Positions 21,394 through 27,646 of a stretch of DNA of 64,000 bases are shown here, one piece after another; position 1 is the first letter of the stretch, and every line of letters begins with the position of its first letter. A program made the position numbers and the translations under genes. The notes beneath the pieces are model-generated. The model had not been told where the DNA came from. It did no database searches and worked only from the letters and a program-made list of their open reading frames with translations. Origin of the DNA: Candidatus Heimdallarchaeota archaeon (GTDB lineage: Archaea; Asgardarchaeota; Heimdallarchaeia; Hodarchaeales; Hodarchaeaceae); the NCBI GenBank assembly GCA_011364965.1, contig RDOB01000003.1:32001-96000 (forward strand), written 5' to 3'.

Positions 21394-21858
21394 CTAGGTT
21401 AATTCATATCTTTGCTCTAAAAAGGGATTTTCATCTGTTCCTGCATAATGATATAGAATGATCAAAGACAATAAATACAGTGAAGAAACTACTCCTAAAC
21501 CAAAAAAGGATCCTATAATTAGAAAGGTTCCAATAATAGTAGTTATCCAAATGAAAATGATCACAATATTCTTCCTCATTTGAATTCGAATCCATGCTTT
21601 TTCTGGTTCTGTTAAAGTATCAGGGAAGAATTTTGCCAACATTAATGAAGCAGTATTATAAAGGAGAAATATTGAACCAATTAGAACTTCCACAATAATT
21701 GTGGCTATAATAAGAGTCATATATATCCCCTCTCTAAAATTAAAAAAGAATCCACTTATAAATAAAAAAATCACTCCGATTAAACCGTAGAAACTCAGAG
21801 GATATTGAGACTTAAATTGTGTTATTGACAGTTTTTTTCCAGAGATCAAAGATATCAC
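21394..21858 (-). CDS. Hypothetical membrane protein (4 TM)
   Basis: Hydrophobic helices; same strand as neighbours. Confidence 0.6.
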   Translation of the reverse strand: MISLISGKKLSITQFKSQYPLSFYGLIGVIFLFISGFFFNFREGIYMTLIIATIIVEVLIGSIFLLYNTASLMLAKFFPDTLTEPEKAWIRIQMRKNIVIIFIWITTIIGTFLIIGSFFGLGVVSSLYLLSLIILYHYAGTDENPFLEQRYELT

Positions 21859-21890: not shown

Positions 21891-22424
21891 TTATGCAATG
21901 ATGGAATATAATAATCCCCCAATAATTGAGGCCATTCCCAATAATACACTAATATATCCCAGCATAGGAATAATTTGATATCCAAGAAAGTTTAAGGTCT
22001 GTAGGGTAATAAAATCGGAATAACGATCACCTAATCCAGGTAGAAATATTGGATTTCCAATCACGGAAAGAATGAAGAAAACTAAAAACACATTCCCATA
22101 TTCTAATAATCGTATATCTCTGATTTTGGTATTTTTGGTCTTTAATACCCGAATGATAATAATCCCTGAGAAAATAATTGAAAGCAATAAAAACGCTAAA
22201 GCTTCTATTCTCATTTGCAAAGGTCCAGCATCAATAACTATTGAACCATAGGGACGGTAAAGCCTATACCAAGGCAAAAAAATTGCTAAACTGAATATAA
22301 GTATCTGAAAACCGTTCCTAAGAAGACTGATTCTCCAGTTGAGTTTATCATAATCTGTACCGGTGATTGAGGGTATGTTCGTCCTTTCTGAAAGCCAATC
22401 CCAAAAAGAATTTTTATTTTCCAT
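21891..22424 (-). CDS. Hypothetical four-TM (tetraspan/claudin-topology) protein
   Basis: TM1-FLPW-loop-TM2-TM3-loop-TM4 (LLGMASIIGG). Confidence 0.65.
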   Translation of the reverse strand: MENKNSFWDWLSERTNIPSITGTDYDKLNWRISLLRNGFQILIFSLAIFLPWYRLYRPYGSIVIDAGPLQMRIEALAFLLLSIIFSGIIIIRVLKTKNTKIRDIRLLEYGNVFLVFFILSVIGNPIFLPGLGDRYSDFITLQTLNFLGYQIIPMLGYISVLLGMASIIGGLLYSIIA

Positions 22425-22583: not shown

Positions 22584-23321
22584 TTATAACGTAACATTCA
22601 AAATTGTGAAGTAAAGATTAAATGAAAGATGTAGAAAAATTGCAGGAATTATTGATCGTGATCTCAAGGTAATGAAGGTATTAAATAAACCTAATAGAAA
22701 AACTAGAACATATAATACAAAATTTCCTACAAGAAAATACTTTAAGTGATAAATTGGGCCAAACCATAATGAAACAAACAATAAACTTTGAAGTTGAGCC
22801 TCCTTATAAGAGGATGGATTCCTTTTTAATAAAAAGAATAGAATTTGAACTAGGAAGATTGACCGAAATTCAAGTTCTTCGATTAAACCTAAAAATAGAG
22901 GGAAAAAAAGACGTTCAGGCCAAGCATCAACAGGAAATAGAATTACTGTATTGATTTTATCAATGGAATATAAAAGAATAGCGAATAAAATAACAATGCT
23001 CCCAATAATCATAACTAGGATATAATACGGAGCAATTTTATTTAAAATGAAATATTGTTTGAAATAAGATCGATTACACCAAAAGAAAAGCATGACAGGA
23101 ACTGCCCCGATCAATAATCCAAGCTCTGTACCTGCTTTATCTGCAAGCATATGTTCTTCTTGAGGATATAATAAGAAGAACACTTGACGAGTGATCCAAT
23201 AATATACTTTAAAAGTTCTTAATATGATTAAGATAAGGATAATTTTTATTTTCAGAGGCCAAGAGTCAAAAAGCGGAGGAATTTCCGATTCATATTGAGC
23301 CAGCAAAAAATGTAACTCCAA
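22584..23321 (-). CDS. CPBP/Abi (Rce1-like) intramembrane protease
   Basis: IEELEFR, WFGPIYH and SIIPAIFLHLSFN motifs. Confidence 0.85.
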   Translation of the reverse strand: MELHFLLAQYESEIPPLFDSWPLKIKIILILIILRTFKVYYWITRQVFFLLYPQEEHMLADKAGTELGLLIGAVPVMLFFWCNRSYFKQYFILNKIAPYYILVMIIGSIVILFAILLYSIDKINTVILFPVDAWPERLFFPLFLGLIEELEFRSIFLVQILFFLLKRNPSSYKEAQLQSLLFVSLWFGPIYHLKYFLVGNFVLYVLVFLLGLFNTFITLRSRSIIPAIFLHLSFNLYFTILNVTL

Positions 23322-23357
23322 AAGAGATTTTTATTTAAAATTGAAAAAAGAGGAGAA

Positions 23358-24938
23358 TTAAGAAGCTTCTCCTCTACTAGAATAAATTTCCTTCGAGAAC
23401 CAACACGCTACTTGATGTCCTGGAAAAACTTCGTCAAGAGTAGGTTCCTGATTGCATTTGTCCTTTGCATAATTGCAGCGATCTTTAAATCGACAACCAG
23501 GTTGAGGATTAATTGGCGTGGGGACATCTCCTCGTAAAATGATTCTTTCTTTCCTCGTTTTGGGATCAGGGATTGGGACAGCAGACATTAGGGCTTCAGT
23601 ATAGGGATGTAGAGGGCGAAGAAATAGTTCATCAGTGTCAGCTATTTCCATCATCTTTCCTACATACATCACTGCAACACGATCTGAAACATGACGGATG
23701 ACACTTAAATCGTGAGCTACTACGATATATGTTAAACCTAAGGTATTTTGAAGATCATCTAAAAGATTTAATATCTGTGCACGAATCGAGACATCCAAAG
23801 CTGACACAGGCTCATCTGCAACAATTATTTGTGGATTCACGGACAGAGCACGAGCAATCCCAATTCTCTGGCGTTGACCTCCGGAAAATTCATGAGGATA
23901 TCGATAAATATGGAATGGGGCCAAACCAACGAGATCCATAAGCTCAAGTACTTTCTGTTCTTTTTCCTTTTGATTATAAGCTAGACCATACAGATCTAGT
24001 CCTTCACTAATGATGTCATATACGGTCATTCGGGGATTTAATGAGGAATATGGATCTTGAAATATTAATTGAATATATTTTCTAAATGCACGCATTTTTT
24101 TGTCTAATGGTTCGTTTTTGTCAATTCTTTGCCAAACCACTCCTCCAATGATTAGTATAGCTGATCCAAGTAAGGTAATTATTAGCGTTGGTATATCAGG
24201 AAAGTACGGACGTCCACCAATGATTATAACCAAGAACATTAAAACCCATTCGCTTAGAACCCCGAAGACGGCAATAATAACCCCAGTTTTAGTGGTTGGA
24301 AAATCTGGTGGTCTTTTGTTCAATAAATGATATAACGGGGAAGCTAAAAACATACCTGTTCCTATGAAAGTTGTTATAGTGAAAGTAAATATCCAGATAA
24401 ATAGTAATGCTACGATGAAGGAAAGATTAGGCCAATTTCGCGTTAAACTAGCAAAGCTAATTAGCTCTAATTCCGAAGTAGCATCATTGAATATGTAAGC
24501 ACCAGAGATAATAACGGAGCCCTCATCAACGAGGGAGTTTAAGAAGGTTCCATTAATACCTGGAATGAATCTTGCAGGAATGAGAAAAGTAAGAAATAAA
24601 AAAGCGAGTCCAGTTAAAATCATAAGAATACTATAAACAAAATTTGTCCGAACAAATTCCTTACCCATTCGGGTGACATCACGATCGTTGATAATGACAC
24701 TTCCGGACGTAGGTTCTAGTAGATGAAGAAGCATTCGTCCGGTCGTAGTTTTCCCACAACCACTTTCACCCACGAGTCCAAATGTTTCTCCTTTGAATAC
24801 ATCAAATGTAATATCATCAACGGCATGAACATTTCCAACAACTGATTGTCTAATTATTCCCTCTCTAATTGGGAAAAGTTTCACAAGGTTCTTAACACTA
24901 ATGATAGGGGTTTTTGTTAAATTTGCCATTTTTTTCAC
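23358..24938 (-). CDS. dppF: Oligopeptide/dipeptide ABC ATPase (DppF/OppF) with internal 4-TM insertion
   Basis: [48 protein letters not shown] and a C-terminal Cys-rich oligo_HPY tail; ~180-aa hydrophobic insertion. Confidence 0.9.
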   Translation of the reverse strand: MKKMANLTKTPIISVKNLVKLFPIREGIIRQSVVGNVHAVDDITFDVFKGETFGLVGESGCGKTTTGRMLLHLLEPTSGSVIINDRDVTRMGKEFVRTNFVYSILMILTGLAFLFLTFLIPARFIPGINGTFLNSLVDEGSVIISGAYIFNDATSELELISFASLTRNWPNLSFIVALLFIWIFTFTITTFIGTGMFLASPLYHLLNKRPPDFPTTKTGVIIAVFGVLSEWVLMFLVIIIGGRPYFPDIPTLIITLLGSAILIIGGVVWQRIDKNEPLDKKMRAFRKYIQLIFQDPYSSLNPRMTVYDIISEGLDLYGLAYNQKEKEQKVLELMDLVGLAPFHIYRYPHEFSGGQRQRIGIARALSVNPQIIVADEPVSALDVSIRAQILNLLDDLQNTLGLTYIVVAHDLSVIRHVSDRVAVMYVGKMMEIADTDELFLRPLHPYTEALMSAVPIPDPKTRKERIILRGDVPTPINPQPGCRFKDRCNYAKDKCNQEPTLDEVFPGHQVACWFSKEIYSSRGEAS

Positions 24939-24942
24939 CTTT

Positions 24943-25929
24943 TTACAATGTTGCTGCGTAGTGACAAAATGAAAAATGTGAAGGTTCGATTTCTACATAA
25001 GGAGGTACTTGAGTAGAGCACTTCTCTGTCGCATAAGGACATCGTGGATGAAAACGACATCCACTTGGTGGAGTTATAAGGTTGGGTACAGTACCTCTGA
25101 TGACTCCAAGTCGCGAAATTTTCTTATCCATACGTGGAATAGAACTAAGCAACGCTCTGGTGTAAGGATGGTCAGGTTTGTCATAGATAGTATTAACATC
25201 TGTATATTCAACTATATTACCTGCATACATCACTGCTACATTATCAGCAATCTCTGCTATGACGCCAAGGTTATGTGTAATATAAAGAACAGCCATATTT
25301 AAATCTTCTTGAAGATCTTTAATTAAATCCAATACTTGTGCTTGAATAGTGACATCAAGAGCTGTTGTAGGTTCATCTGCTATAAGCATCTGTGGATTAC
25401 AAGACAATGCCATTGCAATCATCACCCTTTGTCTCATTCCACCAGAAAATAGATGTGGATAGTCATTAATTCTACGTCTAGCTTCAGGGATACCGACCAT
25501 TTGCATTAATTCTATCCCTTTTTCTAGAGCTTCATCTTCTGAGACATCTTGATGGAGTTTGATATTCTCAAGAATTTGATTTTTTACTGTAAAAACTGGA
25601 TTTAATGAAGTCATTGGATCTTGGAAGATCATTGAAATCTCATTTCCTCTAATTTGCCTCATTCTTTCTTCTGAAAGTTCCAGCAAATCCTCTCCATTAA
25701 ACATCACCTTACCTCCAACAATTTTCCCTGGTGGAGTAGGTACTAGTTTTAAAATCGACAAGGAAGTGATAGTTTTTCCGCATCCACTTTCCCCCACCAA
25801 GCCCAAGACTTCTCCACGATGTAGCTTGAAACTAACATCATCAACTGCCTTTACCACACCATCCTCGGTGAAGAATTGCGTTTTTAAATGTTCTAACTCT
25901 AATAATGGTTCTTCTGCAAATGTCATCAA
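24943..25929 (-). CDS. dppD: Oligopeptide/dipeptide ABC ATPase (DppD/OppD)
   Basis: [43 protein letters not shown]. Confidence 0.95.
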
Positions 25930-25942
25930 TGTTTATCTCCTA

Positions 25943-27646
25943 TTAATTCTTCAGTCGTGGGTCTAACGCGTCTCTTAGCGCATCACCCATTAGATTAAAT
26001 CCTAATACAACAACAAATATGGCTAACCCAGGGATGGTCGCAACCCATGGAGCAAATCGTAAGGTGTTACCCGTCATCCCCCATTGAATTGCTGTACCCC
26101 ATGAAACCGCGAGAGGATCTCCAAAACCTAAGAATGATAATCCTGCTTCAATTAGGATGACTGTGGCAGTTCCTAGAGTCGTTTGAACGATTACTGGAGC
26201 AAGAGCATTGGGTAAGAGATGTTTGAACATAATTGTTACATTTGAAACTCCTAATGCTCTCGCAGCTTCAGTATATTCTAATTCTCGCAATGAAAGAAAC
26301 TGTGCTCGGACAACTCGCGCTATCCCTGCCCAACCCAGCACACCTATAATTATCGCCATGAAATATAGACTTATTTGTTCCCATAATGTAATAGCAATCA
26401 ATAATAAGAAGAAAAATGGAATGGCTAAGATAATATCTGTTAATCTCATAAGCACATTATCCCAAAATCCTCCATAATATCCCGCTATTGTACCAACGAT
26501 TATTCCAATCAATGTAGTAATTCCTTGAGCTAAAAATGCAACGGTTAGGGAGGAAGTAGCGCCCCAAATGGTTGCTGCAAGAATGTCGCGCCCTAAAGCA
26601 TCAGTCCCAAACACATGAAATTTGTTAGTGACATAAAAAACCGCTACATATGCCATCCAACCTTCATAAGTTGCAGTATCTTGATCATTCCACCCATCTA
26701 ATGCATTCCAATTCTGATTCGTGGTTCTAAGAGGATCCATCTCTGCAGGTCCAGACCGTGTAACAACATATTGATTAATTCCAGGGAATTCTATATCCAT
26801 AATTTCCGTATCCAAGACAACAGTGTAAGTTGATCCGGTTGTGATTTGGAGTCCTGCTACACTAAACCTAAAATCAATTAACCTTAGGCTAATACTGGGC
26901 CCAGTAGAGACCAAATAGCTTTGAACACTTGAAGATGCAAGATAATTTGCTGAATTCAAATCTGATTCTGCTTCATATAGATAAACCTTAAATTTGCCTC
27001 CCCATACTGATTCTGGAGAATCCACACGAACTGCTAAGAAAATAGATACGAAAGTTAACTTATTTTTAGAAGGATTTATTTGAAAGGCAATTTTTCCTCC
27101 AGTACGATAATCAATAAGAGCACTGCCATTAAATGAAGTTGGTAACCTGAGAGAACCATTTGCATTCAAATAGTCAGCTGGATCCAAAGAACTACTCCAT
27201 AATTCTTCTTCAGTAGTTTCATCAACAATACTATCAATTTTACTAAGTTGTAAATAGTGAGGAAGGGCTGTTGTTGACATACCATTTATGAAATTAAGTT
27301 TATAATTAGCATAAAAAGCAGCAACGGTTTTTTCTAAAGTACTTGCTTCTTGACTTGCAGCTGTATCTTTAGCAGATTCATAGGAAAATGGAGGTGTGAA
27401 TCGAGCTTGTACATTGGATTCTCTTGGCCCAAATGGAACCAATCTCCCCGGTCCTGCGAGGAAAGGGGCAAAAACTCCTACAAAAGTAACAAAGATTATG
27501 ATAAAAAGCCCGAAAACTCCCATTCTATGCCGACGGAATCTTCGCCAAAAAATCATAATTCGTCCTGCACGTCTTCTTTTCTCCTTTTCTTTTTCAAAGG
27601 CCTCTAATCTCTCATCGTCAATAACGATTTTTCCTTCTTTACTCAT
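25943..27646 (-). CDS. dppC: Oligopeptide ABC permease DppC/OppC with large extracellular insertion
   Basis: WRRFRRH, HVFGTDALGRD, EAARALG (EAA motif), GDALRDALDPR. Confidence 0.92.
   Translation of the reverse strand: MSKEGKIVIDDERLEAFEKEKEKRRRAGRIMIFWRRFRRHRMGVFGLFIIIFVTFVGVFAPFLAGPGRLVPFGPRESNVQARFTPPFSYESAKDTAASQEASTLEKTVAAFYANYKLNFINGMSTTALPHYLQLSKIDSIVDETTEEELWSSSLDPADYLNANGSLRLPTSFNGSALIDYRTGGKIAFQINPSKNKLTFVSIFLAVRVDSPESVWGGKFKVYLYEAESDLNSANYLASSSVQSYLVSTGPSISLRLIDFRFSVAGLQITTGSTYTVVLDTEIMDIEFPGINQYVVTRSGPAEMDPLRTTNQNWNALDGWNDQDTATYEGWMAYVAVFYVTNKFHVFGTDALGRDILAATIWGATSSLTVAFLAQGITTLIGIIVGTIAGYYGGFWDNVLMRLTDIILAIPFFFLLLIAITLWEQISLYFMAIIIGVLGWAGIARVVRAQFLSLRELEYTEAARALGVSNVTIMFKHLLPNALAPVIVQTTLGTATVILIEAGLSFLGFGDPLAVSWGTAIQWGMTGNTLRFAPWVATIPGLAIFVVVLGFNLMGDALRDALDPRLKN

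Follow-up and report, generated by a model that had tools for sequence, protein, structure and literature searches.

In textbook ATP-binding cassette (ABC) importers, the nucleotide-binding domain (NBD) is a soluble motor and the membrane parts are separate proteins. The closest described relatives of the ATPase treated here, E. coli DppF and OppF (8Z1V and 8Z21), are soluble peripheral subunits of 325-334 amino acids (aa), and DppF docks on the permease DppC in the E. coli DppBCDF complex (PMC12136057). We analysed a 64,000-nt window of Asgard archaeal DNA (Candidatus Heimdallarchaeota archaeon, Hodarchaeales, contig RDOB01000003.1; all coordinates are positions in this window), in which the dppF gene and the dppB-D operon to which it belongs lie on the minus strand. 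The product of this dppF has an NBD that is split by a hydrophobic, in-frame insert of ~185 aa, with four predicted transmembrane (TM) helices. The insert is no artefact; it is conserved and subject to purifying selection, and we consider it probable, short of being confident, that it serves as a cis-encoded auxiliary membrane subunit anchoring DppF beside DppC.

By every sequence criterion, the gene product is predicted to be a catalytically complete OppF/DppF-type ATPase of the PepT family (TC 3.A.1.5). The region 23358..24938 holds one stop-free open reading frame (ORF) of 526 aa with a GTG start, and the start of dppF is likely the ATG at nt 24929, giving 523 aa, because the N-termini of the orthologs align to this codon, residue 4 of the longer ORF. 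The Pfam scan recovered ABC_tran in two separate stretches (E 4.9e-32) as well as oligo_HPY (PF08352, E 2.6e-20); a weak DUF2208 match in the same scan was discarded. Walker A (GESGCGKT, 57-64), Q294, FSGGQ (351-355), Walker B with the D-loop (371-382, with ADEP..SALD at 374-382) and H409 can all be read in the sequence, and these motifs, like the four C-terminal cysteines, are invariant across a 16-row alignment. Cys482/488/495/512 have the spacing CX5CX6CX16C, as do C293/C299/C306/C323, the [4Fe-4S] ligands in E. coli DppF (PMC12136057), and are by this sequence comparison a putative cluster site. A Foldseek search with the full-length model ranked first, among PDB chains, 8z21_D (E. coli OppF) and 8z1v_D (DppF), with E 7.5e-27 and TM-scores by target of 0.87-0.88; the same two were the best single-NBD chains in phmmer (E ~1e-85), the C-terminal NBD piece aligning to residues 86-324 of E. 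coli DppF. In the AlphaFold2 (AF2) model, the N-terminal NBD piece is composed of strands within 11-57, a helix at 61-70 and a strand at 78-83. The protein departs from the usual soluble, uninterrupted NBD of ~320-340 aa, since a hydrophobic insert of 185 aa splits it, and this is an architectural variant that gives no reason for exclusion from the PepT family.

The limits of the insert were set by alignment to an insert-less paralog of the same genome: it falls between the hairpin end, 'VTKL' in the paralog, and 'KGRKLRQLRR..QIIFQDP', and thus lies after the post-Walker-A beta hairpin and before the helix leading to the Q-loop strand, at a site equivalent to E. coli DppF residue ~85/86. Kyte-Doolittle hydropathy (19-residue window) delineates four segments in DppF, at 98-126, 169-199, 217-243 and 245-272, with peaks of 2.3-2.6, in comparison with a maximum of 1.29 in the partner ATPase DppD. 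In five orthologs, loop 1 carries 1-3 Lys and Arg residues against 4-8 Asp and Glu, the predicted cytoplasmic segments are Lys/Arg-rich in all five, and the TM2-TM3 loop has three to four Lys or Arg in every one. An acidic loop 1 and basic cytoplasmic segments fit an N-in/C-in four-pass topology, and an even number of helices with this parity is required because the host domain is cytoplasmic. The TM2-TM3 loop is also the best-conserved part of the insert, with P201, Y203, L206, P210, P211, F213 and K217 invariant. Every sequence property supports reading the insert as a putative four-pass N-in/C-in membrane domain with an outer loop of ~47 aa.

In these respects the original prediction is borne out. 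It had described a DppF-type importer ATPase of an Asgard archaeon, for which Pfam, the E. coli OppF/DppF matches and the nearest named relative, Ca. Hodarchaeum mangrovi, all speak, and had placed an in-frame four-helix insert of ~180 aa at about 24110..24660, where alignment gives 24108-24665; it had also called the catalytic motifs and the Cys-rich tail intact and the 328-aa DppD free of any insert, as Pfam and hydropathy of the latter agree. An intein, or another self-splicing or mobile in-frame element, was considered and rejected: no intein or endonuclease Pfam family is found, the junction residues are G92 and P277, the content is four hydrophobic helices, and the GC content of the insert, overall and at third codon positions (GC3), equals that of the rest of dppF. 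A Pfam search of five insert sequences at E values up to 10 returned matches at chance level only.

The same insert is found at the same site, with no stop or frameshift, in six orthologs, which come from independent assemblies. Insert-only protein searches, both word-based and exhaustive, found only DppFs of the same architecture (P0002, 523 aa; P0003, 520 aa; P0005, 519 aa), from NCBI, JGI and ENA assemblies, and a genome search added two congeneric insert-bearing genomes, G001 and G017. The G001 contig (C301) is apparently contig JAEOUE010000301.1 of Ca. Hodarchaeum mangrovi, the ORF maps of the two loci being matched. The order dppB-dppC-dppD-dppF is common to all insert-bearing loci. Full-length gene calls of 519-523 aa are present in four other assemblies; for the genome of the window itself, the protein collection has only a 331-aa call starting at Met196 (P0004, window 23358-24353), which reads as a gene-calling error because such a product would be without Walker A. 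The architecture is concealed by this truncated call, and nested inserts of this kind may escape automatic annotation.

The DNA itself is well supported by independent material. At least half of the sampled words of the stretch are present in 18 public runs from 7 studies; a mangrove metagenome contig of 5,683 bp, not flagged as a possible source, spans 23200-25100 with zero differences, and soil-metagenome contigs cover both insert junctions, with no deletion joints seen. Between the window and the other orthologs, amino-acid identity is 33-65% in the insert and 76-90% in the NBD. The ratio of nonsynonymous to synonymous substitution rates (dN/dS) in the non-saturated pair G001/P0003 is 0.42 for the insert and 0.085 for the NBD, and in more distant pairs (dS >1.8) it is 0.12-0.13 and about 0.05-0.06, respectively. 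In a separate observation, the stretch 24543-24654, which encodes mainly TM1, is represented in each of two metagenomes (X9 and X11) by two contig variants of 112 bp, differing at 7 positions, which suggests co-existing strains.

The AF2 model of full-length DppF, built from the 16-row alignment, has a mean predicted local distance difference test score (pLDDT) of 79.9, and of 71-89 per ten-residue block in the insert region; after TM4 it predicts a helix at 278-288, then the strand 289-293 and the Q-loop. Modelled alone (5 rows; pLDDT 77.6, predicted TM-score 0.72), the insert has the same secondary structure as in the full-length model, namely four long helices and a 4+1-stranded outer sheet to which loop 1 gives four strands and loop 3 one. 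Foldseek against the PDB placed TARP gamma-2 chains first (E 9e-4, TM-score 0.51-0.56). With VIA-align, which is independent of Foldseek, the top ten entries all had the claudin fold, with 132-171 residues aligned at Z 10.4-13.0, a range in which (below about 13) a match between helical bundles can be due to an arrangement common among them; the next matches, at Z <=10.0, had other folds and were for the most part helical bundles. These ten were TARP gamma-7 (Z 13.0, 166 residues), a designed claudin fold (12.2, 165), two TARP gamma-8 entries, 7lep_H and 6qkc_I (12.0, 160-162), claudin-15 (11.9, 165), TARP gamma-3 (11.8, 166), GARLH4 (11.6, 171), MP20 (11.4, 157), chain E of a Cav1.1 complex, read as its gamma subunit (10.6, 132), and claudin-19 (10.4, 146). 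An ESM Atlas structure search returned PMP22_Claudin clusters (TM-score 0.61-0.62 by query, 0.72-0.73 by target), together with two archaeal clusters of proteins whose function is not known (534 and 653 aa).

The claudin superfamily is marked by the signature W-GLW-C-C, with a disulfide pair in outer loop 1. Loop 1 of the insert (residues 123-169) has no W-GLW-C-C, no Cys and a single Trp, at the loop end, and no claudin-type Pfam family (PF00822, PF13903 and relatives) was matched by any of five insert sequences in hmmscan, with E values up to 10 admitted. The insert would therefore be claudin-like in its predicted fold only, with no sequence homology to the claudin family. In that fold, the order of elements would be the same: a long, four-stranded outer loop would join TM1 to TM2, a short cytoplasmic loop TM2 to TM3, and an outer strand would lie between TM3 and TM4. 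Several claudin-fold members (TARPs, Cav gamma, GARLH) are auxiliary subunits flanking the transmembrane domain of another protein.

The spread of the insert is narrow. It is present in three of the 22 species of the genus (G000, G001 and G017), and with this query the 400 phylum genomes yielded no other carrier. Of the closest DppF homologs in 301 genomes of the phylum, only those of the same three have open frames above 400 aa. No free-standing homolog of the insert was found: the sole phmmer match among 1.84 billion representative proteins was another insert-bearing DppF, a word-based search gave orthologs only, and an ESM Atlas feature search gave no usable match. Syntenic insert-less orthologs of 328-329 aa exist in three congeners (G003, G015 and G010), and in the C-terminal part they are 77-80% identical to the window protein and thereby as close to it as the insert-bearing ortholog of G017 (81%). 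A maximum-likelihood tree was built without the insert columns from nine DppF orthologs plus an outgroup. The nine were grouped (100/100), and one branch (91/85) splits the insert-bearing from the insert-less rows, so that one gain or loss suffices: the insert may have arisen or been lost in a single event. Rooting by the outgroup nests the insert-less clade within the insert-bearing rows, which would mean loss, and an approximately unbiased test did not reject an insert-bearing clade (p 0.18). Outside the genus, the best NBD matches that a contig pattern scan gave were bacterial DppF genes of Chloroflexota, Spirochaetales and Solirubrobacterales (49-64% identity in the best segment), which hints at a bacterial origin of the dpp operon.

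In the working that we favour, TM1 would serve as the signal anchor while the protein is being translated, the two parts of the NBD would join into one fold in the cytoplasm, and TM4 would run on into the helix that precedes the Q-loop strand. The module would make DppF integral to the membrane, keep it next to the DppC permease and stabilise or tune the DppC-DppF half of the transporter, an auxiliary role resembling that of the free-standing TARPs, Cav gamma and GARLH, which flank the transmembrane domains of channels. Its place beside the transmembrane domain of DppC is assigned from the docking of DppF on DppC in the E. coli complex (PMC12136057). The insertion site would face the membrane because the Q-loop end of strand 289-293 contacts the coupling helix of the permease and helix 278-288 presumably runs antiparallel; this would put the N-terminus of that helix, the point reached by TM4 and by the end of the hairpin, on the side towards the membrane. 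All three elements, the insertion into the membrane, the place next to DppC and the anchoring or auxiliary role, are what we infer from these data.

Several points weigh against anchoring by an auxiliary module. Transport as such would not need the insert, judging from the close orthologs that do without it, and the insert's rate of evolution is 3-5 times that of the NBD. Support for membrane insertion comes from hydropathy, charge bias and AF2, and the orientation of the insertion point towards the membrane from the strand and helix topology of the AF2 model only. The insert models themselves derive from shallow alignments (5-6 informative rows), the five insert-only models ranging from pLDDT 59.5 to 77.6, and the limit on VIA-align Z scores given above belongs on the same side. 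The single RNA run has coverage at 25058-25100, in dppD only.

An alternative is that the module acts as a transmembrane sensor or gate: its outer sheet would contact the bound substrate-binding protein (SBP) or the ectodomain of DppC, the signal would pass by way of TM4 and the pre-Q-loop helix directly to the Q-loop, and hydrolysis would become dependent on the extracellular side. TARPs are known to modulate a ligand-binding domain of the binding-protein fold through their outer sheet, and the predicted fold match to them lends the idea some appeal, as do the ~290-aa ectodomain of DppC and the end of the insert ~17 residues before Q294, within the helix leading to the Q-loop strand. Moreover, E. 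coli DppBCDF hydrolyses ATP only with DppA bound (PMC12136057), so that such coupling is a real regulatory step in the family. Loop 1 is, however, the least-conserved part of the insert (39-51 aa, few invariant residues), the best-conserved element being cytoplasmic, and the insert-less orthologs share both the long DppC and the type of SBP, so that the ectodomain partners do not need the insert. We regard sensing as unlikely, and the scaffold or anchor reading is more economical. A bolder version, which we would call quite unlikely, holds that the insert is a true archaeal claudin/PMP22/TARP fold and a built-in TARP-like subunit packed on DppC, whose outer sheet touches the SBP or the DppC ectodomain and tunes ATPase coupling; if true, both the claudin fold and the arrangement of a tetraspan auxiliary beside a receptor of the binding-protein fold would have existed in Asgard archaea before eukaryotes.

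The insert might also be a docking platform that recruits tetra177, a tetraspan protein, and/or a CPBP membrane protease encoded downstream, for example coupling peptide processing to uptake. Here the attraction lies in the locus comparison, where tetra177 accompanies five of five distinct insert-bearing loci and CPBP four of five, against none of three insert-less loci for either. Being one evolutionary event among kin, this co-occurrence counts for little statistically, the divergent tetra177 paralogs of G003 are not close to any Dpp operon, and neither sequence nor profile comparison links the insert to tetra177 or CPBP; we hold such docking to be rather improbable. Lower still is our estimate for a tolerated passenger, a membrane segment that came to lie, in frame, in a surface loop of DppF able to tolerate it and has stayed there without contributing a function. 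Its narrow spread (3 of 22 congeners, none elsewhere among the 400 phylum genomes), its faster evolution and the existence of functional-looking orthologs without it would all suit a passenger, but 185 codons remain open across synonymous saturation (dS >1.8), dN/dS is 0.12-0.42, hydrophobicity, charge bias and the nearly invariant cytoplasmic loop are kept at 33% identity, and GC and GC3 are like those of the rest of the gene. It is hardly credible that a chimeric assembly, a pseudogene or two genes read as one produced the architecture: the 331-aa call of P0004 is the observation that points there, and it is opposed by the full-length calls in four other assemblies, the independent contigs that cross both junctions without joints, and the six orthologs without stop or frameshift, while the 331-aa product would have no Walker A.

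Weighed in this way, the proposal of a membrane-integral NBD working as a scaffold or sensor, made in the original prediction, stands in part: hydropathy, charge and AF2 agree on four-pass properties and the scaffold or anchor is more economical, whereas sensing is weakened by the variable loop 1. Its remaining expectations hold as well, the same insert at the same site having been found in Asgard orthologs, both junctions being crossed by independent metagenome contigs, and no already documented DppF subfamily of this kind having been found in the literature (subscription journals lay outside the scope of all literature searches). The features discussed are collected in Table 1.

Table 1. Position of dppF, its insert and neighbouring genes in the 64,000-nt window
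Feature	Position	Strand	Basis
dppF/oppF-type ABC ATPase gene with internal membrane insert	23358..24938	-	ORF translation, Pfam, structure matches
N-terminal NBD piece, residues 1-91: first beta strands, Walker A (57-64), post-Walker-A hairpin	24666..24938	-	alignments, AF2
In-frame insert of ~185 aa, residues ~92-277: four predicted TM helices and small outer beta sheet	24108..24665	-	paralog/ortholog alignment, hydropathy, AF2
TM1, residues ~98-122 (AF2 helix 93-119)	24573..24647	-	Kyte-Doolittle peak 2.46
Outer loop 1, residues ~123-169 (47 aa), net acidic; four short beta strands and short helix predicted	24432..24572	-	charge count, AF2 strands 133-160
TM2, residues ~170-199 (AF2 helix 170-206)	24342..24431	-	Kyte-Doolittle peak 2.44
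Cytoplasmic loop TM2-TM3, residues ~200-216, motif P-IY-LL-KRPP-F---K	24291..24341	-	alignment of orthologs
TM3, residues ~217-241 (AF2 helix 215-240)	24216..24290	-	Kyte-Doolittle peak 2.63
Short outer loop 3 (242-248, one predicted strand 245-247) and TM4 (~249-272; AF2 helix 249-274)	24123..24215	-	Kyte-Doolittle peak 2.29
C-terminal NBD core piece, residues 278-429: pre-Q-loop helix, Q294, FSGGQ, Walker B, D-loop, H409	23652..24107	-	Pfam stretch 271-378, alignment, phmmer
oligo_HPY C-terminal domain with four Cys, and stop codon	23358..23651	-	PF08352 at 430-495
dppD-type partner ATPase, 328 aa, no insert	24943..25929	-	Pfam, hydropathy
dppC-type permease, 567 aa, expected DppF docking partner	25943..27646	-	Pfam OppC_N 33-86, BPD_transp_1 381-566
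dppB-type permease, 373 aa	27666..28787	-	Pfam
Family-5 SBP, 708 aa	16406..18532	+	Pfam SBP_bac_5
Rce1-like CPBP membrane protease gene, directly downstream of dppF	22584..23321	-	PF02517
177-aa tetraspan gene 'tetra177'	21891..22424	-	locus comparison
~150-aa membrane protein, conserved end motif EENPFLE-RYE	21394..21858	-	no Pfam family found

The synteny of the operon is kept in eight distinct ortholog loci. DppC has a stretch of ~290 aa between OppC_N and the permease core (TM1-TM2), presumably extracytoplasmic, and proteins of 703-713 aa occupy the relative place of the SBP in three ortholog loci (L063, L064 and L073). The long DppC (563-607 aa) is found in both insert-bearing and insert-less loci, and an SBP of ~700 aa was seen in both (L063/L064 and L073), so these features are not tied to the insert. 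The genes for tetra177, a family of 177-188 aa with the motifs LPWY and PGLG, and for CPBP sit between dppF and the gene of the conserved ~150-aa membrane protein; the G003 paralogs of tetra177 have no ABC genes nearby. In one locus (L012) there are two tetraspan copies and no CPBP gene. The ~150-aa membrane protein follows the operon in all ortholog loci that reach far enough downstream, with or without the insert, and is succeeded by a 113-aa helix-turn-helix protein. A derivation of the insert from neighbouring genes was tried by BLASTP and hhalign profiles against tetra177, the ~150-aa membrane protein, CPBP, DppB, DppC and a 116-aa protein, and found no support at sequence level, all probabilities being below 6%.

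Another example of a hydrophobic insertion was found in the same genome. Among 47 NBD-like ORFs, hydrophobic segments between Walker A and the signature occur in two only, the window dppF and a second DppF/OppF paralog of 410 aa that lies outside the window (G000:C14:179489-180721, minus strand). Past its Q-loop, within the helical subdomain, the latter has a hydrophobic hairpin of two helices, which is unrelated to the window insert and lies at another NBD site. This paralog has a 67%-identical relative (P0007), and similar hairpin forms exist in the congeners G020 (469 aa) and G008 (427 aa). In addition, Ca. Hodarchaeum mangrovi (G001; contigs C127, C237, C151, C117, C79 and C221) has DppF-like NBDs with N-terminal extensions of 130-330 aa that hold 2-4 hydrophobic helices, their start codons being provisional, and in one of its operons two such genes overlap by 4 nt. 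By hydropathy and motif positions, DppF-type subunits of one Asgard genus would carry mutually unrelated hydrophobic insertions or extensions at three positions. This suggests a recurrent pressure, not described so far, to embed peptide-importer ATPases in archaeal membranes.

A full-text literature search turned up no account of TM helices inside an importer NBD, of a DppF subfamily built in this way or of a claudin-like module in prokaryotes; on OppF insertions of Mollicutes it gave no relevant result. With no paper found, a four-helix membrane domain nested in a PepT-family ATPase is apparently an undescribed architecture. A folded four-pass domain of this kind, as predicted here within the catalytic core of the motor, breaks the rule of the soluble NBD. 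The insert-less orthologs, being 77-80% identical, provide a natural control for the effect of added anchoring on coupling, assembly and regulation. If upheld, the claudin-like fold would also have a bearing on how a tetraspan superfamily that is regarded as eukaryotic arose.

In comparison with known systems, the window DppF shares with E. coli DppF and OppF the ABC motifs, oligo_HPY, the four-Cys spacing and an operon with DppB, DppC and DppD, and differs from these soluble peripheral subunits by the 185-aa four-helix insert. The regulatory insertion in NBD1 of CFTR (residues ~404-435) is likewise lineage-specific, lies in the antiparallel beta subdomain and leaves the catalytic motifs intact; it is short, disordered and soluble and sits between the first two strands, whereas the window insert is a predicted folded membrane domain after the post-Walker-A hairpin. 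Members of the claudin/PMP22/TARP group, to which the insert is likened by its predicted fold, are free-standing eukaryotic proteins, whereas the insert is an archaeal domain nested in an enzyme. ABC exporters and MacB, being fused half-transporters, also have the ATPase and membrane helices on one polypeptide, but their transmembrane domain, which forms the translocation pathway, precedes or follows an NBD that is not interrupted, while in the window DppF the helices are nested within the NBD and the pathway is given by DppB and DppC.

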